DNA from: Sedimentisphaerales bacterium
Lineage (GTDB): Bacteria > Planctomycetota > Phycisphaerae > Sedimentisphaerales > Anaerobacaceae
NCBI GenBank assembly: GCA_963708075.1
Contig: OY970194.1
Location: 2,816,001 to 2,880,000, forward strand
Reading direction: 5' to 3'
DNA: 64,000 nt
Part shown: positions 32,872-63,372 of the stretch, in pieces
Position numbering within the stretch: position 1 is the stretch's first letter
Layout of the letters: each line of letters begins with the position of its first letter
The notes under the pieces: generated by a model
Told to the model about the DNA's origin: nothing
The model's input: only the letters and a program-made list of their open reading frames with translations
The model's database searches: none
Position numbers and translations under genes: made by a program

Positions 32872-35659
32872 CTACCTGCGGATCTCGTAGTAATAGGTTG
32901 CATAGCGGCCGTCGATGCGGAAAGAGTCGCCGGTCCGCTCGACTTGCCGGCCGGTCGGGACGCCATAGACGTCAACCACCTGCACGGAAGTCGCCGGGCT
33001 GCCTTTCAGCGTGATCGTCGCCTGGACGGGTTCGAGCAGCAGGGGCGGGCCGCCGGTCTCGACCAATTCTGTGCCGTCCTCGTTGTACACCGTGCCGAGT
33101 TGTTTGTCCCTCGCCAAGGCGGTGATCAGGATATGCCCGGACTCGATCAGCGGACGGTTATCCAGCGGTGTGAACAGCAGCGAGACGAAGGGCGTTGCAA
33201 TCTCCTTGATCGTCACGCCGGGCAGGTCGTACGTGCCGCCGGCAGCGAAGCCGACCACGCCCTGAGTCCTGTCGCTATGGATGGCGACGGTCTTGTCTGC
33301 GAAGTCCCACGTGAGCTGGCCCGTGTTGCTTTGCACGATTTGCCTGCGGCCATTGATCCAGTCTGCCAGTGGGGCAAGGTACGAGGGCGGCTGGCCGTCT
33401 GCCACTTTGAGTGTCACTCGTCCGACAGCAAGCGCTTCGACGGGCGTATCGCCGTGCGCAAGCAGCTCGTTCTCATCGCCGCCCACGCGGCCGGAGGTCT
33501 GCTGCAGGGCGTCCGTGCCGGCGAAGATCGCGCTTGTGGACAGCCGCCGGGCGGAGACGATCTGGCCTTCCGCGAAATGGCCGTTGTAGATCGCGAACGC
33601 GAGGGCGGGGAACTGGCCGATATAGTGCGGCGTCTCCGTCACGTAGGAGTTCATGCCGGGCCAGCCGTTGCCCATGTAACTGCGCGAGCCCGCGAAGTGA
33701 TACGATGCGTCCCAGCCCTGCAGGCCCAGTCCGTAGAACGCCACCAGCGGGGCGATTTCCGCCTTCCACTGGTTCGGCGGCATCTGCGTCCATTCGGTCA
33801 TGAGGAAGGGCTTGTCCTCCACCTGCCACAGGCCGCTGGACAGGATGCCGCGACCGGGCTTGTCCAGATGCGTCTGGTTGTTCACCTTGCCCGTGGTGAT
33901 GCCGTGTCCGCCCGCGCCGCCGCCGCAGTAGTTGTGCCGGTCGATGGCGCCCATGGCGTCATCGGTCCAGACGTTCGCGGCCGAGGCGGCCGGCCCGCCG
34001 GCGTACCAGGCCGTGCTCACCGTCACCGCCTTGTAGCCGATGTCGCGCAGCCGCTGCTGATAGGTTCTCATAGGTCTGCCGCTGCATCTCGGCCAGGAAG
34101 CGGATGAAGTCGCCCATTCGCGTCTTCTCGCTGCTCTTGTTGAATCGCGGGCCGTCCTTCTCCATCTCCCACGCGGCGTAGATGTACATGCTCGTCTCGT
34201 CCACCGAGTCGGGCCGGCTGCGCAGCGACCCATCGCCATTGTACGCGGCGCTGGTCCTGCGTCCTGCACCCCAGGCCTTGCTCAGCGCCTGGTCAGTCTG
34301 GTACTTGCCCTTGACCCACTGCTGCCACAGGAGCTTCAGTCTCGCGCCGTGCTTCGGATACGACTTGCCCGTGACGAAGCCGTCGCCCAGCGGGTTGTGG
34401 AAGAACACGCAGTCCTCGTTTCTCGCCTCCACAACCGCCAGGGCCGGATCGTCCTTGTACGCCAGCCCCGTGTACGGGTTGACATGGTTGAGCACCTCGC
34501 GGGCGTACTGCCATTGCGAGTCCTGGTATTCCTGGATGAACGTGGCCAGGCCGTAGGTGTCCTTGCCGGCCCCCTGGCTGGGCAGTTCGTTGTAGAGCCC
34601 CTGATCGATCCCCTGATCCGGCAGGACCACATGGTGGTAGAAAATGGACCACGTCATGTAGATGCCATTCTTCTTGAGGATGCTGAACCATCGGTCGAGC
34701 TTGTCGAGCCTGGCGGCATCGAAGTGCCGGCCACTCGCGTCGCGGGCCAGCGAGCCGAGCACGCTCTCCACCGGGTGTTGGCGGACCATGTTGATCCCGT
34801 GCTTGGCGTAGAACCTTGCCTGCCGCTCCTGCGCTTCGACCGTATCCGTCATGGAAGCGTCGATGCCCCAGAACTTGACGAATGTGCCGTCCTCGAAGGC
34901 GAAATCCTTGCCGCGGGAGGTGAGGACCCCGCGACTCCCCGCAGGTTTCTCGATCAAACGGCTCACATCGATGATCGAGTCGGCAGAGAACGGATCGGGT
35001 CCGGCCATCAGGACAAACCAGTCGCCCGGCCCCGACGCCGGGGCATTGGGATCAGGCGGAACCACCCCCGCCGGCGCCCACGGGAAGTTGACAAGCGCCA
35101 TCGCGTCGATGCCGCCGTGGTTGTCGGCGTCGCCCGCCCGCCGCGACAAGCGCACCTCGATCTCGCACGAGCCTTGCACAAGATCGAGCGCGCCGCCGTA
35201 GCACCACGCGATGAAACGGATATCGATGCCGGGCTCGACCAGATCGATCATCTGGTCCTTCGCCTCGGAGACATCGAGGGTCTTCCACGCGGTCCATGTG
35301 CCGCCCTGCCGGTAGCGATAGCTGTAGTTCCCGCCGCCGTTGCTGTTGCTGAACGGATTGAGCCGAATCCACCACGAATAGGTCCCGCCCTCGGCGATCG
35401 TGAGCCGGTACGTCGCCGAGGCCTGCTCGGTGGAGCCCTTGCTCGTGTAGTGCGCGAGCCAGGCGCCGCCGGCGGCGCCGGGAGTGCCGGGCGAGAGCAG
35501 GTCCTTCCTGATACCCGTATTCTGATACCACCCGTGCCGATTGAACGAGGTGGCGGCACAGTTCTCGCCCTCGATCCAGATAGCCTCCCTGCCCCCCGCC
35601 GCCTGAGATGCTACGACCAGCAAGACCAGCCCTGTTACGCACGTTTTGAAATCTGCCAT
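32872..35659 (-). CDS. Secreted clan GH-A (GH5-like) glycoside hydrolase with an N-terminal beta-sandwich; +1 frameshift at 34063-34069
   Basis: VKFWG, GINMVRQH and NPYTGLAYKDDPALAVVEARNE (NE acid/base); FLMTEW (candidate nucleophile). Removing one base joins ...QTYE to TYQQRLRDIG. Confidence 0.75.
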
Positions 35660-35855
35660 TTGACCTCTGATCCTCTTGAACTGCACGTCTCCTCCACCCC
35701 TGTGGACGGACCTGCCCATGAACCTTTCACGTGCCGCACACGCGATACGGCTGTTTCTACCGATGCTGCCAATATACCACATCCCAAGGATTTCAGGGAC
35801 ACTTTACCGGCAGTCGGCACTCACCCTTACACATTTGATTTCTGCGAAAAACCAC

Positions 35856-35884
35856 TTGCCGAATCCCCGCCCCGGCGGTAGAAT
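35856..35884 (+). promoter_or_regulatory. Sigma70-type promoter
   Basis: TTGCCG-N17-TAGAAT upstream of the gene at 36110. Confidence 0.45.
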
Positions 35885-36109
35885 ATGGAAAATCGCGGAA
35901 CGAAGGCGGGCGGCATGTTGTTATTATAATTCTCGCCATCATCGATCATAATTCGAACGCCTTTCATACCACGCCCCCCTTCCGAAGGATGTTCCCGCGA
36001 TTTGCGTCGTGGCACGCAAGGACGCAAGGATGTCGGCCCCCTGCTTGCAGGCGGGTCAACGCCGGTGGTCCGGCACGGTATCGTTCTCATTCATCGAAAG
36101 GCGACAATC

Positions 36110-38323: not shown

Positions 38324-38383
38324 TACTGCGCGATCTGTTTGGGTTCCACCGCGTGCGTTTGGTCCGGCGGATGTAGGCGATGC

Positions 38384-41107: not shown

Positions 41108-41108
41108 C

Positions 41109-45936: not shown

Positions 45937-46242
45937 TCACGCAACACACCGGGTATGAACCTCTCTTGCAATCTTTGAACCAACCTCTCGTTCAGTGATT
46001 CTCAGATCGTAACTGGTTTGCAGGTTGAGCCAGAACTGAGGCGTTGTCCCAAAGTAGCGGGCCAATCGCAGGGCCGTATCGGATGTAATGGCACGTCGTT
46101 CATGCACGATCTCACTGATACGGGGGGCAGGCACCTTGAGCTCCATCGCCAGCGCATGAGCGCTCATCTCCAGCGGAGCGAGGAACTCCTCCCGCAAGAC
46201 TTCCCCCGGATGGATTGGACGCATTTTATTTACCGGACACAT
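45937..46242 (-). CDS. higA: HigA antitoxin (HTH)
   Basis: PIHPGEVLREEFL...RISEIV...TALRLARYFGTTPQFWLNLQ. Confidence 0.93.
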   Translation of the reverse strand: MCPVNKMRPIHPGEVLREEFLAPLEMSAHALAMELKVPAPRISEIVHERRAITSDTALRLARYFGTTPQFWLNLQTSYDLRITEREVGSKIAREVHTRCVA

Positions 46243-46254
46243 TGCTTAGTCTCC

Positions 46255-46533
46255 TCAGTGGTAGTCGACGATCTCAACATCAAGAGCATTGCCATCCTCG
46301 AAGCGAAAGCACAGACGCCACTGGTCATTGACGCGGATGCTCCACTGACCTTTGCGGCTTCCACGCAAAGCCTCCAACCTATTGCCCGGTGGAACGCGAA
46401 GGTCTTGGAGTGCATAAGCATCATCCAGCATTTGCAGCTTACGTTCAGCAACAGCGGCAATCGCTCTGAATCGGCGAGGGCACTTGCCCTCAAACAACGC
46501 CTGCGTATATCGACAACGGAAGCTCTTTATCAT
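46255..46533 (-). CDS. higB: HigB (RelE/ParE-fold) toxin
   Basis: MIKSF...PPGNRLEAL.G.R.GQWSIRVNDQWRLCF...VEIVDYH. Confidence 0.93.
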   Translation of the reverse strand: MIKSFRCRYTQALFEGKCPRRFRAIAAVAERKLQMLDDAYALQDLRVPPGNRLEALRGSRKGQWSIRVNDQWRLCFRFEDGNALDVEIVDYH

Positions 46534-46539
46534 ACGAGG

Positions 46540-46568
46540 ATGATATAACGCACGGCGTTAAACGTCAA
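46540..46568 (-). promoter_or_regulatory. higBA promoter with an operator palindrome
   Basis: TTGACG-N17-TATCAT; the spacer contains TAACG-N5-CGTTA (46546-46560). Confidence 0.75.
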
Positions 46569-46600
46569 GCGAATATCTTCAGCAGGGTCTACGGTGGTTG

Positions 46601-47914
46601 TTACTCGGCAGGGTCGACAGCGGTGACGGCAGGGGTTTGGGCGCGGGCGGCGACTCGTAGTTGGGAGGCGATGTGGATCACGATCTGGCCGACGGCGCCC
46701 AGGGTGACGAGTCCGACGGCGAACCAGTAAGGGGCGTAGGGGCCGATGTGTTGAGCCAGATGACCGCTGGGCCACGAGCCGGCGGTGACGCCGAGGCATA
46801 TCACAATCTCGTGGATGACCATTCGCACGGAGCGTTTACGGCTGGCGGCGGCGCCGTAGAACAGGTGGGAGCTGTAGGCAAATCCAAAGGCTATGCCGAG
46901 AACCACGGCTGAGAGAAGCAGCACGCTCAGGGCCCGGCCGTAGATGACCATCAACAAGGCCAGCAGGACCATGCCCTGCGCCCCAAACAGCAGCCCCGCG
47001 CGGAAATGCCAGAACGCCCAGCGGCCCCCGGCGATCAATGCCAGGAAATTGCACAATGCCACCGTCGTCAGGTACACGCCGAATTGCGATTCGGTGTAAC
47101 CGAGGCCTGTAAATAACAGGGCGAACTGCGACCGGGCAATAGCAAATGAGGCCCAGGCACAGAACAGGGCGATCCTCGACATCCAGCGAAAGTCCACGAG
47201 TTTGGCGTCGGGGATCAAGTCTTCCGATTGCGGATTGCGGATTTCGGATTGCGGAGTAGGGCAAGGGATCGATTCCGCATTCAGCATTCCGCATTCCGTA
47301 TTCTGCGTTTTCCGTGCCAGGCCCAGCAACAGGAAGGAGGCTGCAAAGCACACGACGGCGGCGACCATTGGCCACAAGGGCCCCTGCTCGACCAGCCAGG
47401 CTCCGACGAGCGGGCCGACGACCCCGCCGCTGGACCACGAGCCGTTGTACCGTCCCAGCCGCCGGTTCAGCGCCAGGCCTTCGCAACTGCCTGAGACCCA
47501 GCTCATCAGGAACGGCCAGAACAGGGCCATCGCCGCCCCGCCCAGCCCGCCGGCCGCGATGACCAGCCAGATCCACACCCGCTGGCCGGCGCCATGGTCG
47601 GTCGTCGCCCCGAAGACTGCCATCGCCATCAGAAAAGCAGACAACATCGCTGCCACCACGGCCACCCGGGTGGCACGTTTGGCGTCCAGGTGTCCCAGCC
47701 GTGAGCCGGTCACGAGAAGAGCCGCCATGTAAGCGAGGATGTTCACCGTCGGAGCGTCGCCGACGTGGGCCTTGGTGCCGCCCATGGCGATGAGTACAAA
47801 GGGCATGGCCGACCACGCGGTGCTCAGACTCAAACCCGTTGTGAACGCCGCCCCATAAAGCGGCCACGCCCGCCCGGACGAACCGGCCGGCAGTGCCTTG
47901 CTTGCTTCAAACAT
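46601..47914 (-). CDS. MFS transporter
   Basis: About 12 TM segments; GRYNGSWSSG.VVGP.VG. Confidence 0.82.
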   Translation of the reverse strand: MFEASKALPAGSSGRAWPLYGAAFTTGLSLSTAWSAMPFVLIAMGGTKAHVGDAPTVNILAYMAALLVTGSRLGHLDAKRATRVAVVAAMLSAFLMAMAVFGATTDHGAGQRVWIWLVIAAGGLGGAAMALFWPFLMSWVSGSCEGLALNRRLGRYNGSWSSGGVVGPLVGAWLVEQGPLWPMVAAVVCFAASFLLLGLARKTQNTECGMLNAESIPCPTPQSEIRNPQSEDLIPDAKLVDFRWMSRIALFCAWASFAIARSQFALLFTGLGYTESQFGVYLTTVALCNFLALIAGGRWAFWHFRAGLLFGAQGMVLLALLMVIYGRALSVLLLSAVVLGIAFGFAYSSHLFYGAAASRKRSVRMVIHEIVICLGVTAGSWPSGHLAQHIGPYAPYWFAVGLVTLGAVGQIVIHIASQLRVAARAQTPAVTAVDPAE

Positions 47915-48032
47915 CCTGACTGTGCTCCAAAGCTATTGATTGTACCACCGCCACAACAATGTGCCAGTAGTCAATCCGCCTGACGCGCCGGGGGGGTGTG
48001 GTCGGCCTTTGGTGGCGGATTCCGGTTCTCCG

Positions 48033-48136
48033 CGTAGGACGAGCGTCCCCGCTCGTCCATTGCAGGGATCTGCAATCGACAGGATGTGGTGCGAGGCCAT
48101 GCGACAAAAGGGGCGAGCGGGGACGCTCACCCTACG
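48033..48136. repeat. GTAG-type REP doublet
   Basis: CGTAGGACGAGCGTCCCCGCTCGTCC ... GGGCGAGCGGGGACGCTCACCCTACG. Confidence 0.8.
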
Positions 48137-48227
48137 AAGAGCGGCACCAATCGCCACCGTATTCCGACCGCACCCCGCCGGGGTGTACGACGAGATTGCG
48201 GCAGACCAAGTACAACTATGAGGTTAT

Positions 48228-48315
48228 GGGTGGCAGCGTCAAGGCCGAAGGCCTTGGCGATGGTCTTAGGCACGCCAAAGACGCCATCGCCAAGCTGCGC
48301 TTGACGCTGCCACCC
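48228..48315. repeat. Palindromic repeat, family A
   Basis: GGGTGGCAGCGTCAAG...CTTGACGCTGCCACCC. Confidence 0.9.
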
Positions 48316-48442
48316 GCTTCAATTGCCACTTCTTTGTCGTGCACCCGGTGGAGTGGAAGAGAGTGGGGCCACCCTCCGCGGGTGGCCCATGGGTGCTGAT
48401 GTCGGTCGGGTGAGAGAAGTGAGTTGTCTATAGTGTGCGTGC

Positions 48443-49639: not shown

Positions 49640-49693
49640 TGCTCGCGCTCCTTTCTCAGCGAGAACCTGTCCCAACAGGCCTGTTGCATGACC

Positions 49694-49782
49694 GGGTGGC
49701 AGCGTCAAGACCGAAGGTCTTGGTGATGGCCGTTTCGCAAGGCCAGAAGACCATCGCCAAGCTGCGCTTGACGCTGCCACCC
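49694..49782. repeat. Palindromic repeat, family A
   Basis: GGGTGGCAGCGTCAAG...CTTGACGCTGCCACCC. Confidence 0.9.
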
Positions 49783-49852
49783 GGAGCATAGCCTCGTGCT
49801 TGAGAGAGCATCAATGGAACGTCCATCATGGGACAGGCTCCAGGATTCGTTG

Positions 49853-52123
49853 TCAGTCTCCACTCGGGGATTTGATCAGGACCGGCTCGCCGTCCACCAT
49901 CAGGAGGATATCGCCGCTCAGGGCGATGCTGCCCTGCCGATTGTCTTTCGCCAGCTTGCGGGCCAGCTCGAAGTATTCCTGCGATCCGAACTCGATGGTT
50001 CGCACGGGCGAGGCCTGCTGCTGCCGGGCGACCAGCTTGCTGTCCACCCACTGCCCGCCGCGGCGATAGTATGCGTTGTCATTGACCTGCTGCACCGCGC
50101 TGATGGAGACTTCGTTGAGGTCAGTATCAAGGAAGTTGTTCTTCATATTCAGTTGTTCCTGGCCCTTCTGCCGAACGCTGTTGAGGCCCTGGTTGACGGC
50201 TGCCGGGCCGGCGCGTGACCGCATTGCCCGTGCGGAGAAATTGTCCATCGCCTCTCGGTGCACTTCGCTGACGTCGTGCAGGTCGGTGCCCTCGCGGGCG
50301 AGGAAGGCCGTGTACTCCGTCAGGATGCCGAACTCGGTCGATAGCCGCACGATCTCATCGATCAGCTCTTTGGTCTTGGGATCGTTCACGGAGGCGGCCG
50401 GGTCGGCGCCCATCTGGCGAACCGCGTCGATCAGCTCGGCGATTTTGCGGCTGGCCCACAGCCGCGGCACAAAACCGTTCTTCGCACTCGTCTTGTCGAA
50501 GTCGAACGCGAATTGGAACGTACGCTGTTTCCCGAAGAAATTGCCTGTGATCTTGAAGGTTACCGGTTCCTCGCCGACGTACTGGCCCAGCAGAATAAGC
50601 CGGTCGCCTTCGAACAGATCAGGCAGTTTCTCAGGCAGGATGTCGCGGGTCCGTCCGATGGCGGCATCGCCGTCACGGTCCGTCACGCGAAGTTCGGGAT
50701 CAGCCAGAACCGGGCCGCTCAACTGCTTGAAAACCCGGCCGACTTTGACCTCGACGTCCTCCTTTGGCAGCACGAACTCCACGCGTCCTCGTGACTCGGC
50801 GGCGATGCGCTCCAGGAGCGGCGCGTTGACATCGAAGCCGACGCCGAAGGTGAAGACCCGCCGCTTGTGCGGATTGGACTTGGCCACGAGATCGCGGATC
50901 ACGGCCTCTGCCGTTTGACCTACGGTCGGCAGTCCGTCTGTGAGGAACAGGACGATTGGCAGCGTCCCTTCGGTGGGCTGCTGGCTCAGGACCGCCTGCA
51001 GTGCGCCGTAAATGTTCGTCCCGCCTGTGGCGGTAATCCCTTCAATGTATCGCTGTGCGGCCTTTTCTGTGGCGTCGCTCTTGATCACGGGCTTGGGCGA
51101 GAACCATTGAACGCTGTTGCTGTAGAGGATGATGTTGAAGGCCTCGCCCTCGCGCAGGCCGGCGATGGTCTGCAGGGCCGCTTCCTTGACCTGCTCGAGT
51201 TTCTCATTGCGCATACTGCCGGAGCGGTCGATGACGAGCGTCACCTCACGTTTGAGGGTCGCCGCAGTCGACTCGCCCGTCATGTCCGCGGGCAAGCCCG
51301 CCAGCAGGAGGAAGTAGCCGCCGCCGACCGTTTTATCGGGGTAGGCGAACATGGAGGCGGTGACACTGTCCTCCTGGAGCAGATAGGACAGCCGGAACGG
51401 CCCCGGCTCTTTCGTGGCCTCATCCGTGATCTTCACGGTCACTTCCCGTCCGCCGACTCGCTCCATCTCGAGCTTGTGGCTGGCGGAATAGACGGTCGAG
51501 ACCGGCCGGGCCGCCTTGATTCTCGCCGTCACCTTCCACGGCACTGCGTATTGCAGCGATTCCGTGCGGGGCAGGATGTAATCGACGCGAGGGCCATCCA
51601 CGTCGAGCAGGTGCTCGTAGGTGATGCGGACCGTCTGCTTGCCGTTCGCCTCGACGGGGAACACGCTCGACTGGATCAGGTTGTATCCCACGAACTCCAC
51701 CAGCGCCGGATCGCGGATTCTGGACACGAGGCTCTCGTAGATCCGCTTGGCCTCCTCCCGCGGCAGGACCTGGGCGGTAATCTGGCCGCTCGGGCCATCG
51801 TAGGCAAAGCCGCGTACCACCGCCCCATCGGGCACGGGGAGAATCAACTCGGCTTCCTGCCGTTGATGAGTCCGGTTGGCCAGGTGGATCTCGATTGAGG
51901 TCGTCGCCGTCACTTCCACGATGTCGATCAGCACATCGACCTTCGTGATCTCGACGGCCCTCTCGTGTCGGGGGGCAAACGCCCACGCACGGCTTTGCGG
52001 AATGAGGACATTGGAGAAGGACGATTCGATCCCGACGTGGCGCACCTGTGCCAAGCCGCAGCGCGGCAACGCAAGTACGAAAACCATCATCACGGCGGTT
52101 GGGACTGCTCTGAACCTGTTCAT
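49853..52123 (-). CDS. Secreted VIT + vWA protein (inter-alpha-trypsin-inhibitor-like)
   Basis: EA.RIYESLV.R.RDPAL.E (VIT); VIDRSGSM, GGTNI and FLTDG (vWA); RLWA.RKI. Confidence 0.9.
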   Translation of the reverse strand: MNRFRAVPTAVMMVFVLALPRCGLAQVRHVGIESSFSNVLIPQSRAWAFAPRHERAVEITKVDVLIDIVEVTATTSIEIHLANRTHQRQEAELILPVPDGAVVRGFAYDGPSGQITAQVLPREEAKRIYESLVSRIRDPALVEFVGYNLIQSSVFPVEANGKQTVRITYEHLLDVDGPRVDYILPRTESLQYAVPWKVTARIKAARPVSTVYSASHKLEMERVGGREVTVKITDEATKEPGPFRLSYLLQEDSVTASMFAYPDKTVGGGYFLLLAGLPADMTGESTAATLKREVTLVIDRSGSMRNEKLEQVKEAALQTIAGLREGEAFNIILYSNSVQWFSPKPVIKSDATEKAAQRYIEGITATGGTNIYGALQAVLSQQPTEGTLPIVLFLTDGLPTVGQTAEAVIRDLVAKSNPHKRRVFTFGVGFDVNAPLLERIAAESRGRVEFVLPKEDVEVKVGRVFKQLSGPVLADPELRVTDRDGDAAIGRTRDILPEKLPDLFEGDRLILLGQYVGEEPVTFKITGNFFGKQRTFQFAFDFDKTSAKNGFVPRLWASRKIAELIDAVRQMGADPAASVNDPKTKELIDEIVRLSTEFGILTEYTAFLAREGTDLHDVSEVHREAMDNFSARAMRSRAGPAAVNQGLNSVRQKGQEQLNMKNNFLDTDLNEVSISAVQQVNDNAYYRRGGQWVDSKLVARQQQASPVRTIEFGSQEYFELARKLAKDNRQGSIALSGDILLMVDGEPVLIKSPSGD

Positions 52124-52226
52124 CTTTGTGCCTCCTGTTCAGTTGTCGGTAGCCTGCAACGAGTCGAGAGCCGTCAACGGCTCCGGTGGCTCTATAGAAT
52201 ATAACGCACAAAGAAGGTCCGGTTTT

Positions 52227-52290
52227 GTAAATAGGACGTAAAAAGAGGGAGAGCGCGTGACGACGCGGATGTGTGTAAAAAGTACGTAAA
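52227..52290 (-). promoter_or_regulatory. Two GTAAA-N6-GTAAA direct-repeat pairs, a candidate OmpR/PhoB-family binding site
   Basis: GTAAA at 52227/52238 and 52275/52286, upstream of the VIT gene. Confidence 0.5.
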
Positions 52291-52366
52291 AAAGGTAATC
52301 GGTAGCCGGTAGTCGGCTTGCGTGCTCTTCATCACCGACTACCGGCTACTGACTACCGATTACCAG

Positions 52367-55300
52367 TCACTTGCCGCTGGGCTTGGCTTCGTTCAGCACT
52401 CGCTGCCGGTTGTTCGACAGCTCCTGACGCAACTGCGGATCGTCCCGCGCCAGGTCGATCGCCATGTCCAGATGCTTGAGGGCGAGGTCGTACTGTTTCT
52501 GCCGGAAGTATAGATTGGCGATGAAGTCGCAGGTCCGCGCCTGCCTGTCGCGGGGCAGCAGCGGCAAGAGGCGTTCGAAGACTTTGATCGCACTTGCGAA
52601 ATCCCCGCGGCTGGCATGCAATTCCGCAAGGTTCGTGTAGGCCGTGTCCAATCCGGGCCGCCATTGGATCGCCCGCTCGAAGGCTTTGGCAGCCTTCTCC
52701 AATTCGTTCACGTTCCTGTAGCAGACGCCGAGATTGTTCCACGCGGCCGCTTCGCCCGGGACGAGACGGATCAGTGCTTCATACTGCTCGGCCGCCTGCC
52801 CGTACTGGCGTAGCAGCAGGAATTTCCGGGCCAGGCGGTCCCTCAGCTCCTCGGAATCAGGGATCCTCGCGACCGCCTCCTCCAGGTCTTTGATTTCCTT
52901 GCGCATTTCGTCCAGGATGAAATCGACGTCGCGATCCTGTGGGTTGGCCTTCCGGGCCATCTCGAATTCTGCGTGCATGGTGTCGGGATCGCCCTGCAGG
53001 GCCCCGACGACGCCGCGCAGCGTACAGGCGGTTCCCTGGGAATACTGTTGCAGCACGAGTCGCGGGTCCTCCGGCTGGTCCGGCAGCCGTCCCGCGTTCC
53101 TCACGCAGGGCAGCACCGGCGAGTAGTATCGGCTGATGGCCTGGATTACGTCCAGCCAGCATCGTTCGCTATCGCGCTTGATCGCCGCCCCGAACTCCAG
53201 GTACGGCGTATCATCCCGGTGCAAAGGGCCCTCGCCTCCCAGGGCCTTGAGTCCCTCCTCACCGACCACGAACCAGTCGAGCAGGTCGTACACGCAATGC
53301 ACGTTGATGATCTTCAGGTCGCCGGCGATGTCAGGCCGGGCCAGGAGTTGCCGGATGCGCTGAAAATCCAGCTTCGTCGGCTCCAGCGTTCCGAGCAGGA
53401 CGCCGTGCTTGTTCAAGCAGTTGTTGACCATCCACAGCGAGCTGTGCGGCATGGCCGCCTGGAAACTTCGCACGATGATCTGAAAGTCTTCCAGCCGCAG
53501 GTCCAGAGGCACCCAGCAGGACAGGAGGCCACCAGGCTTGAGGCGGTCGCGACAGGCCATGAAATGATCGTACGTGTACAGGGCCGAGCTGCCCGTCGTT
53601 CCCGGGTACGTCGAATCGTTCATGATAACGTCGAACTTCTCATTCGTGAGCTTGATGAAGTTCTTGCCGTCCATGATGATCTTCCGCAGGCGAGGGTTGT
53701 CGTAGGAGCGACGGTTGATCTCATCGAAGAACGAGCCCGCTGTGAAGATATCGGGACAGATGTCCACGATGCTGTAGCGAGCGACGCCGAAGTCCAGGCC
53801 GATCCCGCATGTCTCACCGCTGCCATAGCCGATCTGCACGACATCCTGCGGCTTCTCGTGGACGAGCAGCGGCACGTACGCCTGCAGCTTCTGGGTGCTG
53901 CGCAGCATCAGGTCCATCCCGGCCACGTCGATGCCGTCCACCGCGATCAATCGATCTCCGTCGGGCAGGTCGTGTACGGTCACCGTGCCCGTGGTCCCGT
54001 CCTTGATGTACACGATCTTGCTGGGGTAGTGATACGTGTTCATCGTTCGCAGGAATACATCCTGTGGAATGAACAGAGCACTCGCCGTGATGACTGCGGC
54101 CGAGAACCGGCAACGCCGCCGTCGTCCACAAGATGCCTCGCCGGGCCGAAAGCAGAATCAGGAATATAGCCGCAAGGAAGAGAATGCCGACGATCACGAG
54201 AAGACTGTTGCGCATCCCCAGCCAGGGGATCATCAGGAATCCCGCGGTGAACGCGCCGAAGACACAGCCGACCGTGTTGGCCGCATAGACCTGTCCGACA
54301 CCCCGGCCCACGACGTGCCAGACCGGGGCGCAGGCCTTCACGGCGATCGGGAAAGCCACGCCCATCAGCAGCGTCGGGAGGAACATGATGGCCATCGCGT
54401 CGAGGAAATGAGCGGCCATGTCCGTCCAGAAAGACAATTGCCCGCCGACCACGCGATCCACCACATAGATGTCGATGCGCCACAACTGCCCCAGGACCGG
54501 CACGGAGCCGGCCACGGCCAGCGCCAGCAGGAACTCCACGATTCCCAGCGCGAACATGGGGTTCTTCAGCCGCGACACCAGCAAGGTGCCGGCAATCAGA
54601 CTCCCTACGGCGATGCCCAGGATAAAACACGTCAACATGCAGGCGAAGGCATACGCGGAGGTCGCCAGGACAAACACCAGCAGCCGTGTCCACAGCACTT
54701 CCAGCGCCAGGGCGCAGAAGCCTGCCAGGAACACGCTGAGCAGGACCGCGCGTCGGCGGCCGGTCGAATAGACGCAGGTGGGCTCATCCTTCGGGCTCAT
54801 CTCCACGCGGGCAATCTCCTGGGCCAACTGCTCCCGCTTCGATGTGTTGCGGACCACTCGCCGGGCCCGCAGAGTGAAGGACAGGAACAAAGCGGCCGCA
54901 CCGATCACCGCGTTCGCCGCCGCCGCCATGTAGATGGACGCGTTCACGCCCCAGAGGCGGATGAGGAAGTAGCCCGTGAGGAAGCTGCCGATGACAGCGC
55001 CGAAGGAATTGACGGCATAGAGCAAGCCGACGCTTCGCCCTGTGCTGGTCTCCGGCTCGCCATGAGCCGCGGGAATCGCCCACAACGAGCTGAGCATGGG
55101 CAGCGTGCCGCCCATGAAAGCCGTGGGCAGCAGGAGAATGACCACCGACGCTCCGAAGCGGACGAGATTCAAGAGGTAGGAGCCGGGTTGGTAGGTCTGA
55201 TAGAACCACAGGTAGAATTGATCGGCGTGCTGGAGGATCGTCGGGAAGGCGAACGCGTAGGCAGCGATGGCCACCTCTAGCGCACCATAGAATTGCAGTG

Positions 55301-55535
55301 GCCGGCGGGATCGGTCGGCCAGTTTTCCGAGCAGCCAACTGCCAACGGCCAGTCCCAGCATGAACGCCGTCAGAACTGTGCTGGCGGCCAGCACGGTGTT
55401 GCCGAAAACCGTCCCGAACAGACGCATCCAGGTGATCTCGTAGATCAAACCCGTCGCGCCGGAAACCAGAAATAGTACAATCGCCAGCTTGCGAACAATA
55501 GCGACGGCAGGTTGTGCTTGCGTAATGGGTTTCAC
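52367..55535 (-). CDS. Fused MFS-like membrane domain / spermidine-synthase-like SAM domain / TPR protein; +1 frameshift at 54102-54108
   Basis: SGATGLIYEITW.R, LLPTAFMGGTLP, LYAVNSFGA, IGYGSGET, MDGKNF..FDVI and C-terminal TPRs. Removing one base joins LPV to SAAVITASALF. Confidence 0.82.
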
Positions 55536-55690
55536 GACGACCTCGGCTTATAAAGCGTGATGTGTTTCGTAATTTGCCCGATCAGCCTTTCACCGCCGGC
55601 CGACCGAGCGATATGCAGCGTCTCCTCCAGGGTCTTGAGGGCTTCATCGGGCCGGCTTGGTGAAGCTGCGCCGGCAACAGCCACCACGCA
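55532..55690 (-). pseudogene. Possible orphan C-terminal remnant of a TPR protein
   Basis: RPDEALKTLEETLHIARSAGGERLIGQITKHITLYK resembles a TPR capping helix; its stop overlaps the next start (GTGA). Confidence 0.4.
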
Positions 55691-55839
55691 CAGTCCCCCC
55701 ACGAGATTGTGAACCGATTTCCCCATGGGCCCCTTGAATTCACGGTCAATGTAACAGCCAACCTGGGAAGAAATTATACCCGCGCTGCGGCCACGGATCA
55801 AGCATTGGAAATCACAGAATGCGGGTGTGAGATTGGGTC

Positions 55840-56355
55840 TTAGGGCAGAAACGACGACAGATCCGTCGCATATTGGCGGAACTTCTCGGCGGGCAGGGTC
55901 ATGGTCTGCCATTTGGGGCTGCGGCGCTTCATGTGCCGGCAATAATCGTCCAGCCGGATACAGAAGAACAGATACGTGTCACGCTCGTACCTGAACGCAC
56001 CGTGGCCGTTGAAATCCACGTCCGCTTTTTCGATACGGTAGGTAAAAACCAGGACCGCCTCGTGATCTGCGCCGAGGGCTTGTCTCCAGGTTCGCAGGCT
56101 CTCAATGTCGTCGGCGGTGGCCCAGCAATCGAAGCCCTTGAGTCCCGCCAGTGTCGTGCCGTGGAATGTCCGCCCTTTGACCTCGACAATCACCTTCCTG
56201 TCGGGTTGGGGGTAGAGCAGGAAGTCGAAATTCTTGACGGATGCCGGGGGCAGCCCCGGCCGCTTGTGTTCCTCCGCACGAACGTACGGAATGCGACGGT
56301 CGATCAGCCAGTTCTCGAACGCTCGCTCGTAGTGGTTGGGAGAGAACTCTTTCAT
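55840..56355 (-). CDS. HYExAFE-family protein (PD-(D/E)XK nuclease-like)
   Basis: NHYERAFE, KNFDFLL and VEVKGR. Confidence 0.8.
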   Translation of the reverse strand: MKEFSPNHYERAFENWLIDRRIPYVRAEEHKRPGLPPASVKNFDFLLYPQPDRKVIVEVKGRTFHGTTLAGLKGFDCWATADDIESLRTWRQALGADHEAVLVFTYRIEKADVDFNGHGAFRYERDTYLFFCIRLDDYCRHMKRRSPKWQTMTLPAEKFRQYATDLSSFLP

Positions 56356-56402
56356 CGAATTCGCATCCCCGTTCTCTCAATTGCGGACTCAAGACTCAGG
56401 AT

Positions 56403-56496
56403 GGGTGGCAGCGGCAAGCGGAGCTTGCCGATGGCTCGTGGGATATGCGTCAACACCATCGGCAAGCTCCGAAGACTCCGCTTGCCGCTGCCACCC
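56403..56496. repeat. Palindromic repeat, family A
   Basis: GGGTGGCAGCGGCAAGC...GCTTGCCGCTGCCACCC. Confidence 0.9.
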
Positions 56497-56523
56497 ACGG
56501 CTCTCACCTTGACAGCGCCGATC

Positions 56524-57823
56524 TCAGGCACTCAGGCCCGCCAGGAACTGCTCGGCATTCACAAGTTGCTGCTCCCCGGTCGCCATGTCTTTCACGACAA
56601 GTTGTCTCTTGTCGATATACTCCTGCCCGAAGATTATACACTTCTTCGCATTCTGCCCGGCCCCCTCCTTGAGTTGCTTGGAGAGATTGCCGAGTTTGTA
56701 GGTGATGTTGGCTGAGTGGCCTCTTGAGCGAATCTGCGCCGTCACGCGGTACATTTCCTTGGTGAAGACCGGATTCTGCTCAGCAAATGCCACGAAGTAC
56801 TCAAGCTCTCGCTTGGGCACCTGCTTCTCCAGCAATCCTTTCTCCTGAAGCAGGATCTCCAGCACGGCGTCACCCATGCCCATCCCAGTGGCGGATATGG
56901 TGGGCCCGCCGAAATCCCGCAGCAGGTTGTCGTAGCGTCCTCCACCGCAAATCGCCCTCAGTTCCCCGGCGACATCGTGCACCTCAAAGACCATGCCTGT
57001 GTAGTACGCCAAGCCGCGCACGATGCTCGGGTCAAAGCAGCAATAGTCGCTGACCTCCATCCAGTCAAGAATGGCGAATATCTTCTTGAGGTCACGAACA
57101 GCATCAAGGACCTGCTCGTTCGCACCTGCCGTTTCCTCCACCCGCTCGATGGAGTCGAGGGACATGAAGTCCAGAATCCGGCGGGCCTGATTCGCGTCGG
57201 GCACCTGCTCGGCCAGTATCGCCTGGAACGTCTCCGGCGGCAGCTTCGGTTTCTTGTCGAGCACGGCATAGAGTGGATCGAGCTTGTCCGCCGGGATTCC
57301 GATGTTCGCAAGGACCGCCGCCAGGAGCTTGCGGCTGGAGATCTTGGCCCGGATGTCACTGGGGGTCAGACCGACCGTGCGCAGATAATCCAGGGTCGTG
57401 AAGATGACCTCGGCATCGGCCTGCCCGCTCCCATCGCCAATGATATCGAGGTTCCACTGGAAGAACTCGCGGAGCCGGCCCTTCTGCGGTTTCTCCGCGC
57501 GGCACAGGCGGGGCACGGAGAACCACTTGATCGGCCGGGGCAGAGCGTTGATCTGCTGATTGACCATGCGGGCCAGCGTCGGCGTGATCTCGGGCCGAAT
57601 CGCCAGGTCCCGGCCGCCGCGGTCCTGCAGCGAGAACAACTGTTCCACGATCTCCTGCCCGCTCTTGATCTGGTACATGGACAGATACTCGAAGATCGGG
57701 CCGTCATATTCCTCAAAGCCGTTGCGAATCGAGAACCTTCTTCCAACCGTCAATGATCCAGTTGCGGCGGGCCATGTCCGGTGGATAGAAATCCCTTGTC
57801 CCCTTGACCGGCGGTATCTTCAT
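56524..57823 (-). CDS. hisS: Histidine--tRNA ligase; +1 frameshift at 57731-57737, probably an artefact
   Basis: The N-terminus MKIPPVKGTRDFYP starts at 57823 in another frame; RPEITP, RAEKPQKGRLREFFQ, RGLAYYTG and GGGRYD follow. Confidence 0.93.
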
Positions 57824-58224
57824 GCCTTGCTCTTCCTGGCGTTCTTCACCATCTTGCGTTTCTCCGTGACATTGTTGTCGAACTTGATGCGGATGTACTC
57901 GTCCATCTCCCGGTCACTGGTGAAATGGAGCTCGTAATCGTACTCGCCCGGGACCGCGTCACAGTCCCCGTGCCTGTACTTGCGGCAGATTTTCGGCCGC
58001 CTGTCGTAAATCAGGCACTTGTGGTTCTTTTCCGACAGATGCCGGCACTTCCTGCTCACACTGAGATACCAATCCCCATCCTCGACAAAGATTGAGATAT
58101 CCTCGTGGCTAAGATACCAACGAATATCATCGTAGTCTTCTCTCGTCTCAGGTGTCTCAATGGGAAGCGCAAAGTACCGGCAGCACAAGCCCGTACACTT
58201 CTCGCACTGCCCTTTCGCAGCCAT
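57820..58224 (-). CDS. YkgJ-family CxxCxxCC zinc/iron-chelating protein
   Basis: CEKCTGLCC...CRHL...CLIYDRRPKICRKY; ATGA overlap with hisS. Confidence 0.85.
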   Translation of the reverse strand: MAAKGQCEKCTGLCCRYFALPIETPETREDYDDIRWYLSHEDISIFVEDGDWYLSVSRKCRHLSEKNHKCLIYDRRPKICRKYRHGDCDAVPGEYDYELHFTSDREMDEYIRIKFDNNVTEKRKMVKNARKSKA

Positions 58225-58368
58225 CTGTAGATCCTCGTATCTGTCATCATAGGCATACTCTCTTCACGAAACCGTTACTATATGCCATGCCCCCTGTATC
58301 GTCAACAGAGGCAAGTGCTGCCTCCGGGGACGTGCGCGACTACGCTTCGTGGGGGAGCTGTCCGGATT

Positions 58369-58489
58369 TATCATGCTGAGTGAAGCGAAGCATCTGGCCC
58401 ACGAATGAAACCAACGCTTGTTCCCTTGCACAGCGGAGATCCTTCGCTGGCGCTCAGGGCCTGCCCTGAGCATAGTCGAAGGGATGACA
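58369..58489. repeat. Palindromic repeat, family C
   Basis: TCATGCTGAGTGAAGCGAAGCATCT...AGATCCTTCGCTGGCGCTCAGGGCCTGCCCTGAGCATAGTCGAAGGGATGACA. Confidence 0.7.
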
Positions 58490-58764
58490 GGATGGATACA
58501 CGGCCCCCCCCCACGAAGATTAGCCGCACACCCGGGGCGCCGCCTGTGAGGTTTTCCCAGTGCCGGGATGGGTGTTCAGCCGGCGTACGGAGAGAAGAAC
58601 AAAAAAAATCGCAAAAATCGAAGCTCGACCTGTAACGTTTTCCTCTGTGCACAGACCTACAAGTGAAAGCTTCGCGGGCCTCTGCGAAGGCCATGCGAAG
58701 TGTGCTACGCGTGGTTTCCTCCACACGAAGGTGGGCTGCACAGAGAAAAAAGGACAAACGCCCA

Positions 58765-58815
58765 TGCGGCCCCGCTGGTCCCTGGACCCGACCCGGCGGG
58801 GCCGCACCTTCCTTC
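58765..58815 (+). terminator. GC-rich hairpin, possible terminator
   Basis: 14-bp stem TGCGGCCCCGCTGG/CCGGCGGGGCCGCA followed by a pyrimidine tract. Confidence 0.45.
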
Positions 58816-58865
58816 GCTCGTCTTGATCCCCGACGGGAAGATCCGTGAAAAGCGATGCATTTTCT

Positions 58866-58954
58866 GGGTGGCAGCGTCAAGGCCGAAGGCCTTGGCGATG
58901 GCCGTATCGCATCCCAACAAGACCATCGCCAAGCTTCGCTTGACGCTGCCACCC
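58866..58954. repeat. Palindromic repeat, family A
   Basis: GGGTGGCAGCGTCAAG...CTTGACGCTGCCACCC. Confidence 0.9.
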
Positions 58955-59001
58955 GTCGTATTTCACGAGGCGGTAATCCCCCCGACATTCTGTTTGGTCT
59001 C

Positions 59002-60015
59002 TCACGCACACCAGGGACGGGTACGCTTGATATCGCCCGCGAGGACATTCTGCGCGATGATGGTGTCCTCGCGCACCTGGAAATCGAACATGCCCACGCA
59101 GAGGAAGTCCGCGCCGCCCTCGAAGGCGAATTTGAAGCCTTCCTGCGGTCGAACCGCTCCGGCGGCCAGAACCTTGAACGCGATCCACGGCTGCTTCAGG
59201 GTCGCCATGTATTCGATGGTTTCCTGGGGATTGCGGCAGTACATGTTGTCGTGGTACTGGTTGTGATCATTGCTGCCGGGCCCGACCACATCGAACACCT
59301 TGCGGTTCTCCTTGGGTGTGGCGGACCAGTAGTTGTCCGGGTGGAGCGTCTTGACCCAGAAATCCGGCTGGAAACCGGCGTTTACACAGGCCTTGATCGT
59401 CTCCAGATCGTGTGCACCGAGCCCGCCGGGGACATTGAGACTCTTGATATAGTCCAGCGCCTCGCCGAGAGCTGCCGTCTTGCCATCACGCACAGCCTGG
59501 TCGGCCAAGCCGCCCTGGAAGTACACGGCGTGGGCCCCGCTATCGACGGACCGCTTGATGCCCTCCTTGATGTCCTTGCCCGAGGCACAATCGGAGAACC
59601 ACTGAATCTTGCCGCCCCGCTCGTTCCAGTAGCGGTTGATCACCTTGTCGGAGACGGGATTGGTCAGAACCGTATTGATTCCACGCTCCTCGGCTATTTC
59701 CAGCGTTTCCATCACCTTCTCATCGGTATGGTAGGCCTTCACGAGCGAGCTGACATACATCAGGTCCCGGCTGTGGGCCCAGCCGCCAATGAGGTTGCCG
59801 CCGCAGAAGATCCGGCTGACCGTCAGGTTCTTGATCTTGCCGCAGGGCATCTTGCTATCGGAGGTTTTGGCCTTCTCATCGCCCGGCTTGCCGCCTTCGG
59901 CCATTTTTGCCAGCAGGTTCTTCTCCTCAAAGCTGCTCAGCCCCAGGGCCACGCCTGCCGATGCCGCCACCGATCCCTTGATGAATCCGCGTCGATTGAC
60001 TTCTCTCTCCGACAT
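59002..60015 (-). CDS. Tat-exported aldo/keto-reductase-like protein, paralogue 2
   Basis: NRRGFIK leader; VSRIFCGGN, GINT and IAFKVLAAG...VGMFDFQ. Confidence 0.7.
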   Translation of the reverse strand: MSEREVNRRGFIKGSVAASAGVALGLSSFEEKNLLAKMAEGGKPGDEKAKTSDSKMPCGKIKNLTVSRIFCGGNLIGGWAHSRDLMYVSSLVKAYHTDEKVMETLEIAEERGINTVLTNPVSDKVINRYWNERGGKIQWFSDCASGKDIKEGIKRSVDSGAHAVYFQGGLADQAVRDGKTAALGEALDYIKSLNVPGGLGAHDLETIKACVNAGFQPDFWVKTLHPDNYWSATPKENRKVFDVVGPGSNDHNQYHDNMYCRNPQETIEYMATLKQPWIAFKVLAAGAVRPQEGFKFAFEGGADFLCVGMFDFQVREDTIIAQNVLAGDIKRTRPWCA

Positions 60016-60046
60016 AACCCACTCCTTCTCAATAAGGCTCGTAAAT

Positions 60047-61024
60047 CTACGACCGCCACGGGCGCGTTCTGCCGACCTCGCCGGACAGTATATTCTTCGC
60101 GATGACTACGTCCTCTCGGACCTGAAAATCGAACATGCCGACGCAGCAGAAGTCGGCACCGTTCTTAAACGCATGTTTGAAACCCTCGTTCGGCTGAATC
60201 GCCCCGGCAGCCAGGACCTTGTACGCAATCCAGGGCTTTTCCACCTTTGCCATGAACTCCGCCGTCTTCTCAGGCTCCTTGTCCCAGTAGTTATCCACGT
60301 TATAGTTGTCGATCACGTCCTTGTTCTGGTCCGGCCGGCGCTTGGACCAGTACTCGGTGCTGTGATGAGTCTTCATGTAGAAATCGGCAGGCAGCTTCTG
60401 CTCTTCGCAGAGCATGGGCGTGCCGAGATTATGCCCGCCGACGCCGGTGATGACCCCCTGGCTCTTGACGAAGTCGAGGAACTTGCCGATCTGATCGGCC
60501 TTTCCCGCCCGAGACCACTCGTCGCCGACATTGCCGATCAGAAACGCCCCGGCCGCCCCGCCATCGACGGCCTTCTTCACATCGGTCTCCAGATCGTCCG
60601 CCTGGGGAACGCACTGCGCCAGCCACTGGATCTTGCCCCCCCGCTCATCCCGGTATTTCTTGAGCACGGCGGTGGAATTGGTGCCCGTGATGATCGTGTT
60701 GATGCCGTTCTGCTCGCAGATTTCGAGGGTCTCAATGATCTTTTCATCGGTGAAGTAGTGCTTCAGCAGCGGCGAGACGTAGATCAAGTCCCGGCTGTGG
60801 GCCCAGCCGCCGATCAGATTACCGCCGCAGATGAGCCGGCTGATCGTCAAAGTGCCGATCTTGCCCGCCGGCAAACCCTGCACACCCGTCTCCATGGACA
60901 CTTTGGGGGTGCTCGTCGTCGCCCCCAAAAGGGCCTGTTCCTCCAGACTCAGGGCCGACAGAGCCGCCGCAGAACCGACAAGGGAGGTTTTCAAGAATTC
61001 ACGCCGATCCAGGTTGCCTGACAT
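60047..61024 (-). CDS. Tat-exported aldo/keto-reductase-like protein, paralogue 1
   Basis: DRREFLK leader; ISRLICGGN and IAYKVLAAG...VGMFDFQ. Confidence 0.7.
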   Translation of the reverse strand: MSGNLDRREFLKTSLVGSAAALSALSLEEQALLGATTSTPKVSMETGVQGLPAGKIGTLTISRLICGGNLIGGWAHSRDLIYVSPLLKHYFTDEKIIETLEICEQNGINTIITGTNSTAVLKKYRDERGGKIQWLAQCVPQADDLETDVKKAVDGGAAGAFLIGNVGDEWSRAGKADQIGKFLDFVKSQGVITGVGGHNLGTPMLCEEQKLPADFYMKTHHSTEYWSKRRPDQNKDVIDNYNVDNYWDKEPEKTAEFMAKVEKPWIAYKVLAAGAIQPNEGFKHAFKNGADFCCVGMFDFQVREDVVIAKNILSGEVGRTRPWRS

Positions 61025-61145
61025 GTCGTGCTTCCACCTCAAAAGTACATTTCATGCGGGGCCTTACCCCGATAACGGCAGCTATCTTACCACGAATCAG
61101 GCAGGACTTCAATGGCTCCCCGCCCAGCCTGCCTGACAAAGAGCG

Positions 61146-61337
61146 TCACTTGAACTCGGGCGGGATGCCTGCCTGTTTGCAGATTTCGTTGGCCGTGATG
61201 CGGTCGAACTGTCTGTGGCGTTTGACCGGGACTACTTTGACGTCACTGGTGTAGATGGAGTGGTTACCGCCTTCCCTGAGCAAGCGGAAGCCGTTTGTCT
61301 CCAGATGACGGATCAGATCACGTCGCTTGACTGACAC
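61146..61337 (-). CDS. hicA: HicA toxin
   Basis: KRRDLIRHLE.NGF.LLREGGNHSIY...VKRH...ICKQAGI; GTG start at 61337. Confidence 0.88.
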   Translation of the reverse strand: MSVKRRDLIRHLETNGFRLLREGGNHSIYTSDVKVVPVKRHRQFDRITANEICKQAGIPPEFK

Positions 61338-61554
61338 GCTCAACCTCGACCGGGAGTTGCTCGATAAGGGCATTTCCCGCGGGGATTTCCTTGCCCAGTT
61401 GCGCGTATGCCAGCACCATCTCGCGCAAGGCATCCCGAAGCATGGCCCGGCATTCCTCCAAGTCCTTGCCTTCCGTGACAACTTCGGGCCACTCGACCAA
61501 CTGCCCCAGGTAGCCGGAGTCGATCTTGGTATATCTGGCAGTGTAGCTGATCAT
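61318..61554 (-). CDS. hicB: Short HicB antitoxin lacking a DNA-binding domain
   Basis: YTARY...GYLG...WPEVVTEGKDLEEC..MLRDAL...GKEIP. Confidence 0.85.
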   Translation of the reverse strand: MISYTARYTKIDSGYLGQLVEWPEVVTEGKDLEECRAMLRDALREMVLAYAQLGKEIPAGNALIEQLPVEVERVSQAT

Positions 61555-61641
61555 CGCGCTGCAATCTCCCGAAAACAGTAGTCGATTTCGAAGTAGTCTA
61601 ATCGTTTTGCCGGCATCCGTCAAGTCCACGCAAAGGCCGAA

Positions 61642-63372
61642 TTACCGCGCGCCCGGACCCTGTGCATGAACCGAGATTTCGGCCCAGTGGGCGGCTTCGA
61701 AACGCCAGCCGGTGGGCTCGTTGACCAGCTCCAGCTTGACGGTCTGGCCGGAATAGGGCAATAGATCGACAGTCACTTCGGTCCAGCCCAGAGTGCAGGT
61801 TCTCGGGGCCAATGGTCATTCGAAGAAGTTGCCGGCCATTGGCCTTGACGATCAGGTCCCAATCGCCGCGAGGATCGTGGCCTACCACCAGCTTCAGGGT
61901 GCTGACCTGGTTTGCCGGCAGATCGACGGTCCGGCTGATCACGCAGCCGACGGTCTCGCTCAATGGATGGGTCACCAGCACGTTCTTCTTGCCACGCACC
62001 TCGTCCTTCAGGCCGGGGTCCATCTCCTCGCCGCACTTGGTCACCTTCCAATCCGGCGCGAACTTCGCCATGGCCTTGGAAAGGTCCTTGCCGGCGTCGG
62101 CCGTAATCTGGGCCATCTCCTGTTCTGTGTACTTGCTGCCCATGGCAGGTCCTGGCTCCCAGCACTGCTCCAATGCACTCGGGCGGGGCCTCTGCCTGGG
62201 GATCACGAAGTACTCTCTGCCTTGCTTATCGGTCACAATCTTGCCGCCGCAGTTGACCACGGCCTGGCGCGCAGCTTCTCGCATACGCCAATCATCGTGG
62301 GGAAATCATACGGCGTGTGGCTGAATTTGCCCGTGGGGTCCAGGGCACTGGAGAACTTCTCGGGCAGGTTCCTGAACCCGATCGTTGTGAACAGGATGCC
62401 GCCGGCGTTGGACGGGTTGCAGTCGGAATCCAGGCCGCACCGCATCGAGATGACAATCGTCTTGTCCGGATCGCCCCGGCCATAGAGCAGACCCATGACG
62501 ATGTACGCGCCGTTGATCTTGGCATCGATGTTGAACTCGTCCTCCGGGCCGGTGCACGAGAACCGGCGGTTCTGCGGGCTCAGTTGGTATTTCTCGTTGA
62601 TCAGTTGCCAGGTCTTGGACCAGTCGCTGGGATACTCCTTGTACCACCGGACCACGTCCATGATGCACTCGTGGTACTGGCTCTGCGGCGGAATGCACCG
62701 CAGCCCCGCCTCGACGACCCTTACAATGTCCGTTTCGAAGAACGCCTCGGCGTACATGCCGGCGACGAACTGGCCGCCGTATAGGCCATCGCCATAGTTC
62801 ATCAGGCGTCCGAAGATCTCGCCCAGCTCGATGCCGACATTGGGCAGGCCCGGTGAGATCAGGCCCGAGTAATCGGCCTCGATCTGGTAATCGATGTCGT
62901 CGGCGTGCTTGTTGAACTGCGGATGTCCCGAGTCCGGCGGCGCGATGCCGGCCCGCAGATTGTCCCGACCGGCCTTGTTGGCGTGCCAGAGCGGATAGCC
63001 GCTGTTGGCGAAGTCGATGCCGGCCTGCCGGATCGACACCCCGAACCCATGCTGCTCCAGAGTCCGCAGGAACGTCATCTCCACATAGATGTCATCCTGC
63101 TGGAACTGGTTGATGAGCTTCGGCTCCCATTCGGGCACCTTATCTTCAGGTATGATGACGCCCTTGTAGCGGAACTCCGTGGGTGCTCCCCAGCCCACGC
63201 CGGCCATCTGGCCGACCCACCCGGCCTTCATCTTGTCCACGTAATCCTCGACGCTGATGCGCCGCTCCCCCGGCTGCAGCATAGCCGGCCGGCTCTCCTC
63301 CCGGCCCGCACACCCGGACAATACGACAAGAATGGAAACGACAGCCACAGACAGGAATAGATGCCGGTTCAT
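61642..63372 (-). CDS. Lipoprotein ADP-ribosylglycohydrolase-family protein with a C-terminal beta-sandwich; two frameshifts (about 62270 and 61798-61804)
   Basis: Lipobox LSG-C; GQMAGVGWGAPTEF, QDDIYVE and CGLDSDCNPSNAGG. The corrected frame ends GWTEVTVDLLPYSGQTVKLELVNEPTGW...*. Confidence 0.8.

Follow-up and report, generated by a model that had tools for sequence, protein, structure and literature searches.

One-base assembly errors at GAGACC/GGTCTC in a Sedimentisphaerales genome and their probable origin in methylation by an Eco31I-type enzyme pair

A stretch of 64,000 nucleotides from a Sedimentisphaerales bacterium (contig OY970194.1, positions 2,816,001 to 2,880,000; called the window in the following) contains four genes that are each interrupted by an apparent +1 frameshift at the heptamer GAGAACC/GGTTCTC. 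The window is part of a single 7.5-megabase (Mb) contig, and the genome (G000) is 92.8% complete. All four genes are on the minus strand. They encode a glycosidase-like protein, a membrane/spermidine-synthase/TPR fusion protein, HisS and an ADP-ribosylglycohydrolase. Pfam searches revealed MFS_1, Spermine_synth and TPR in the fusion protein and tRNA-synt_His in HisS, and also backed the annotation of the ADP-ribosylglycohydrolase. The glycosidase-like gene had been labelled "GH5-like" in an earlier note made from the sequence alone, but the sole indication from Pfam was a GH42 match below threshold (E 0.05-0.11), and the label was not upheld. A gene pair encoding HicA-like and UPF0150 (HicB-like) proteins (61146-61629) lies directly after the ADP-ribosylglycohydrolase gene.

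The window contains 20 heptamers and 31 intact hexamers (12 GAGACC, 19 GGTCTC), in line with the more than 20 intact sites noted earlier. In a local frame test exactly four of the heptamers were scored as +1 switches, and these were the four that the earlier note had named. On the plus strand the word reads GGTTCTC at 34063 and 61798 and GAGAACC at 54102 and 57731, and thus each orientation occurs twice, again as noted before.

For the repair tests a single base was removed in silico and the length of the open reading frame was measured again. Removal of one base from the heptamer extended the glycosidase-like reading frame from 607 to 969 amino acids, that of the spermidine-synthase fusion from 573 to 1055 amino acids, and that of hisS from 36 to 432 amino acids. 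The repair by one deletion that had been claimed for all four genes thus held for three of them. The reading frame of the ADP-ribosylglycohydrolase was 379 amino acids long with or without the heptamer deletion, and it reached 576 amino acids once a second error, a base missing after position 62271, was removed as well. The four sites are not the only errors in the window; a fifth heptamer error is intergenic, and a candidate -1 break lies near 14204.

The earlier note had proposed to look for independent reads across the sites. Twelve public sequencing runs hold part of the region 53000-62500, and the best four (X1-X4) were aligned to positions 46001-64000 of the window; the shares of the other eight (X5-X12) were small. 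The contigs of X1 are very close to the window, as seven of the eight long ones listed have 0 substitutions. At 54105, an X1 contig (53826-54347) showed 0 substitutions and a single gap, and X2 agreed. At 61800, one base fewer was present in contigs of X2 and X3, while the X4 contig in this region stops at 61801 and is uninformative. The intergenic error at 48026 is slightly less secure, because a repeated element adjoins the site and the X1 contig differs from the window by 3 substitutions over 429 nucleotides. The base missing after 62271 was present in the X1 and X3 contigs. The heptamer at 51099, in contrast, was intact in an X1 contig with 0 differences in 439 nucleotides, and also in X2 and X3. 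Some heptamers are therefore genuine, and the comparison of contigs discriminates between the two cases. The coordinates are summarized in Table 1.

Table 1. Heptamer sites, further sites in the window (plus-strand coordinates) and the methyltransferase genes of the genome. X1-X3 denote public sequencing runs.
Feature	Position	Strand	Remark
GGTTCTC, one spurious base	34063..34069	+	splits glycosidase-like gene 32872-35782 (- strand), about 969 amino acids; frame switch
GGTTCTC, fifth error, intergenic	48024..48030	+	X1 and X3 contigs omit one base at 48026
GAGAACC, genuine heptamer, negative control	51099..51105	+	bridged without gap by X1, X2 and X3 contigs
GAGAACC, one spurious base	54102..54108	+	splits membrane/spermidine-synthase/TPR fusion gene 52367-55535 (- strand), about 1055 amino acids
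GAGAACC, one spurious base	57731..57737	+	near 5' end of hisS 56524-57823 (- strand), about 432 amino acids
GGTTCTC, one spurious base	61798..61804	+	3' extension of ADP-ribosylglycohydrolase gene, start 63372 (- strand)
Second error, one base missing after 62271, GCGC context	62266..62275	+	ADP-ribosylglycohydrolase gene; different error class
Methyltransferase pair M1 and M2, side by side	G000:C1 4,944,989-4,947,921		profile searches

Further peculiarities were seen in the contigs. An X1 contig skips 189 nucleotides at 49659-49849, with 8 other letters in between, possibly because a small insertion is carried by only part of the population. An intergenic element of about 100 nucleotides (about 58185-58300) has many copies in G000 and its congeners, and related repeats near 48028-48270 and 56400-56500 are marked by spikes of contig depth and by loose contig ends.

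The other two sites were judged by homology, as 57731 was bridged by no listed contig and 34063 lies outside the aligned stretch. In 11 of 11 congener hisS genes one base fewer was found at the position of the heptamer, and five of them read GGTCTC. Two homologues of the glycosidase-like gene were found among 20 relatives; both are uninterrupted open reading frames (959 and 965 codons) that lack the additional base, and one reads GAGACC at the site.

Taken together, the extra bases are almost certainly one-letter assembly errors and not mutations, and none of the four genes, hisS among them, is broken in the living cell. The opposite explanation, i.e., that the insertions are real and were created by motif-directed mutation (e.g., when restriction sites are nicked and then repaired incorrectly) or are used for programmed frameshifting, could appeal to the motif specificity and to the presence of a putative nuclease and Vsr in the genome (see below). 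It is extremely improbable, given that the base is missing from matching contigs in three places and that hisS would be cut to 36 amino acids. Recoding, moreover, cannot explain why both orientations to the coding strand are represented among the errors (114 and 65 genome-wide) and why one error is intergenic, and the shift site was kept in 0 of 11 hisS and 0 of 2 glycosidase-like homologues. The earlier note had likewise regarded a real process as remote.

The analysis was extended to the whole genome with a codon model trained on G000 and a frameshift-aware Viterbi parse, as a tabulation of frameshift contexts had been suggested before. At the middle penalty 440 frameshifts were called, namely 304 of the +1 type and 136 of the -1 type. 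Three of the four named sites were recovered; the hisS site was not, because the break is too close to the gene start. The heptamer was found within 15 nucleotides of 102 of the 304 +1 calls, compared to 1.7 expected, and was by far the top 7-mer; among the -1 calls it was 1 of 136. With a strict penalty, 62 of 160 +1 calls carried GAGAACC. The predicted enrichment of this word across the genome was thus found.

In addition, a site-by-site frame test was applied to all 1683 heptamers of the genome. After 804 unresolved cases had been dropped, 879 remained, of which 179 (20%) switch to +1, nine switch to -1, and 691 are in frame. For 13 control words a frame switch was seen in 0-2.5%. Set against 2034 in-frame hexamers, about 8% of the coding GAGACC sites are affected. 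The errors are evenly spread (8-18 per 0.5 Mb), and the two orientations on the plus strand account for 107 and 72 of them. Variants of the last base switch in only about 1.2% of the cases (GAGAACG 11/906, GAGAACA 9/679, GAGAACT 6/489). These low rates indicate that the target is the full six-base word GAGACC, and the five-base target GTCTC was ruled out by the same controls.

A congener (G013), in which no corresponding methyltransferase pair was found, served as a control; 1.2 Mb (C35 100001-1300000) of a 1.62-Mb contig were analyzed. There, 7 of 99 heptamers switch frame, compared to 6 of 145 for the control word (p 0.39). Altogether 377 frameshifts were called, which is five times the density of G000, and GAGAACC was not among the top k-mers. 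No motif dominates in this stretch, where the predicted frameshifts amount to about 314 per Mb and the majority are +1.

The absence of an enrichment in this congener speaks against the possibility that the errors result from sequence context alone, i.e., from a weakness of basecaller or polisher at GAGACC, with the Eco31I-like gene pair described below being present by coincidence. In favor of context are the strong dependence of the error frequency on the flank, as a pyrimidine precedes GAGACC in 149 of 179 errors but in 1435 of 2794 intact sites (p 7e-18), the small fraction of affected sites, and the fact that we infer the methylation. However, partial penetrance has been reported also for methylation-linked errors (excerpts of PMC12392509), and the one rare methylase family found in G000, and in only one of 31 genomes, is exactly the family known for GGTCTC. 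An origin in context alone is thus very unlikely.

A search of the genome for Eco31I-like methyltransferases, as the earlier note had recommended, was successful. The profile TIGR02987 (N6-methyladenine, m6A) gave a single match above its cut-off in G000, at C1 4,945,112-4,946,671. This gene, M1, scored 389.3 bits (cut-off 353.5) and contains the motifs DPFCGDG and NPPW. The cut-off was passed by G000 alone among the 31 genomes, and by none of the 30 relatives. Directly after M1 lies M2, the only PF00145 locus found in G000. M2 is circularly permuted, with PF00145 positions 234-322 coming before 2-180, and its PPCQGFS motif is intact. The gene order of the cassette is M1 (570 amino acids), M2 (402 amino acids), a gene for a 437-amino-acid DUF3883 protein, and a convergent vsr gene. 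The island has a G+C content of 52-54%, compared to 60% for the genome.

The Eco31I-family pair of E. coli Nissle was used as reference; its connection to Eco31I is by annotation and by the equal length of M2, and not by direct comparison. M1 is 34% and M2 50% identical (396 columns) to the Nissle proteins, and the M2 segment GSRSTYYGRL is common to M2 and its Nissle homologue. In three stretches examined in E. coli EC958, its Eco31I locus was not present. For a test of the same error elsewhere, the record of an E. coli plasmid was considered in which a homologous locus is fragmented, but this record was too noisy throughout.

The similarity to Eco31I/BsaI thus comprises separate, adjacent M1 and permuted M2 genes, the same M2 segment and, probably, the same target word; the Eco31I enzymes have 546 and 396 amino acids (excerpts of PMC10810934). 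A difference is that in G000 the nuclease slot is occupied by the co-directional DUF3883 gene, followed by vsr, and no nuclease of the Alw26I/Eco31I/Esp3I family was found. The fused methylases of this family belong to the same methylase families as M1 and M2. However, a fused member encoded by an Enterococcus plasmid shows lower identity (21% and 38.5%) and has another M2 segment, and the error in G000 needs the full GAGACC and not GAGAC. Alw26I (GTCTC) and Esp3I (CGTCTC) are such fused enzymes.

According to excerpts of PMC4659465, GAG(m6A)CC was reported for enzymes identical to M1.Eco31I, and 5-methylcytosine (m5C) was predicted on the other strand, GGT(m5C)TC. Both marks were reported from nanopore calls in the available part of PMC12679398. 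As Eco31I-type pairs methylate GAG(m6A)CC, the doubled A in the heptamer corresponds to the methylated adenine; the doubled T adjoins the cytosine that is methylated by such pairs. From the homology of the genes and the error footprint, it is most likely that the bacterium methylates GGTCTC via the Eco31I-like enzyme pair.

The genome encodes further enzymes of this kind. Six strong N6_N4_Mtase genes are found in G000:C1 at 2149757, 3448003, 4912952, 5129722, 5190365 and 6224840 (L018-L023). Together with several other adenine methyltransferase-like genes, none of them with an assigned target, they are the argument for the idea that the errors are linked to a modification, but that a different enzyme of G000 sets the mark, or that the mark is not a simple methyl group. 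This is very improbable, as an asymmetric six-base word needs a system for two strands, the only PF00145 locus found is the Eco31I-type M2, and its neighbor M1 passes the TIGR02987 cut-off.

The frameshifts at GAGAACC are thus assembly errors, which very probably arise because methylation of GGTCTC/GAGACC by the Eco31I-type pair would confuse a nanopore-type basecaller. M1 and M2 would be active across the whole chromosome and would mark both strands of the site. Reads of both strands would be perturbed at the same spot, and the basecaller would double the central A or T. The miscall would win the consensus at about 8% of the sites, and more often with a pyrimidine ahead of GAGACC. The assembly would have been built from native long reads without polishing by short reads.

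This class of errors has already been published. Base modifications interfere with nanopore basecalling, and the resulting miscalls can prevail in the consensus at a subset of the copies of a motif (excerpts of PMC6591954, PMC10687267 and PMC12392509). Examples are consensus errors at the Dcm motif CCWGG (PMC6591954, in part) and errors at GCAGC and GCTGG in Listeria assemblies (PMC10687267, in part), and further reports on methylation-linked errors are PMC11610573 and PMC11610603 (both in part). The common features are a short motif, errors at only some of its copies, their absence from short reads, and a lineage-specific methyltransferase. In contrast to the cases in these excerpts, which are mostly mismatches, the error at GAGACC is an insertion of one base. 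No published report of such an insertion at GAGACC was found in narrow searches of open-access text.

Several points weigh against this explanation. The listed contigs bridge only two of the four named sites, at depths of 2.6-4.5, and contig depths overall are 2.6-5.4. An X3 contig (depth 2.4) spans 54105 with no deletion listed. The library type of the public runs is not on record, and X1 may be the source sample. The congener control is a single genome, 74% complete, with no recorded platform. The link between gene and motif rests on homology, because no fewer than six further N4/N6 methyltransferase genes are present in G000. Both the methylation and the nanopore origin of the assembly are features that we infer. 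Lastly, avoidance of GAGACC was dropped as support; the depletion is mild in G000 (0.83 of the Markov expectation), and since the congener without the pair has a value of 0.88, it adds no support.

The earlier note had postulated a Type IIS-like restriction-modification system encoded elsewhere in the genome. The methylase pair was indeed found, but the putative nuclease next to it does not belong to the Eco31I/BsaI family, to which it is unrelated. A search of G000 with PF09665, the profile of the Alw26I/Eco31I/Esp3I-family endonucleases, was blank, but the controls had no match either, and therefore tblastn was used. The Nissle nuclease had no match in the 92.8% complete G000, while the same query matched the metagenome locus L112. 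In this locus (1-5817) a single methylase pair of the Eco31I type has both an Eco31I-family nuclease and a DUF3883 protein on its flanks. It is a possible intermediate of a swap, and it also leaves room for an accessory role that the DUF3883 protein may have.

For the DUF3883 protein 209 homologues of near-full length were found among 7993 scored candidates. The neighborhoods of 42 loci were analyzed, 31 of which are distinct by a 100-residue segment. A close M2 homologue was present in 32 of 33 loci with at least 600 nucleotides upstream, and in the remaining one (L111) the C5 methylase is a distant one. M1 was present in 25 of 26 loci with at least 2500 nucleotides upstream, and xGSRSTYYGRL in all 30 M2 genes with their start in view. 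One locus (L041 4481-8582) is on a 14.6-kilobase plasmid of a cultured strain of Roseomonas mucosa (CP099480.1), and comprises vsr, M1, M2, which is in pieces in the record, and the DUF3883 gene. The presence of the gene set on this plasmid shows that the cassette is mobile.

The AlphaFold model of the DUF3883 protein (predicted local distance difference test score 86.7) has two domains and a disordered linker (278-311). The C-terminal part is a predicted PD-(D/E)XK domain that can be superimposed on archaeal Hjc (Z 9.4, root-mean-square deviation 2.6, 93 residues), and D342 and K357 are invariant. A sequence search of the PDB with the nuclease alignment gave no match, and neither did Foldseek at E<=0.001. 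In excerpts of PMC10609329, DUF3883 proteins are presumed to be a group of Type II nucleases. No description linking DUF3883 with restriction enzymes was found in open-access text, although REBASE may already list a predicted GGTCTC system that includes this nuclease. Judged by its neighbors and its predicted fold, the protein is likely to be the putative cognate restriction enzyme. With some reservation, we lean towards the wider proposal that it is the restriction enzyme of a widespread uncharacterized family, that it recognizes GGTCTC like BsaI, and that it is built differently, i.e., from a recognition domain of about 270 amino acids, a linker, and a small Hjc-like PD-(D/E)XK domain. The error footprint would then be indirect in vivo evidence for the target word of the cassette.

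A second class of errors has a different context. GCGCC was found at 83 of the 136 -1 calls genome-wide (11.5 expected) and GCGC at 72 of the remaining 202 +1 calls (27.8 expected). Examples in the window are 62271 and the site near 14204. The signal was weaker in G013 (17 of 64, 6.4 expected). A second m5C enzyme that could explain these errors was not found in G000, and they may be due to another mark or simply to the context. When their true word was sought by likelihood, the missing base was not localized. Furthermore, palindromes are extremely avoided in G000, foremost CAGCTG with 170 copies instead of 4016 expected (G013: 56 versus 695), followed by CTCGAG, GTCGAC, TTGCAA and AAGCTT.

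For the biology at the four sites the errors have little consequence, since the genes are intact. In the G000 reference, however, the false frameshifts number a few hundred (440 were predicted, and a single word accounts for about a third of those of the +1 class), and claims of pseudogenes or gene loss based on this assembly are therefore unsafe. From frameshift contexts alone, the motif of a methylase can be read and assigned to a gene in an organism that has not been cultured. Should the DUF3883 protein prove to be a nuclease specific for GGTCTC, it would resemble BsaI while having an unrelated architecture, which would matter for the evolution of restriction enzymes and for Golden Gate cloning.

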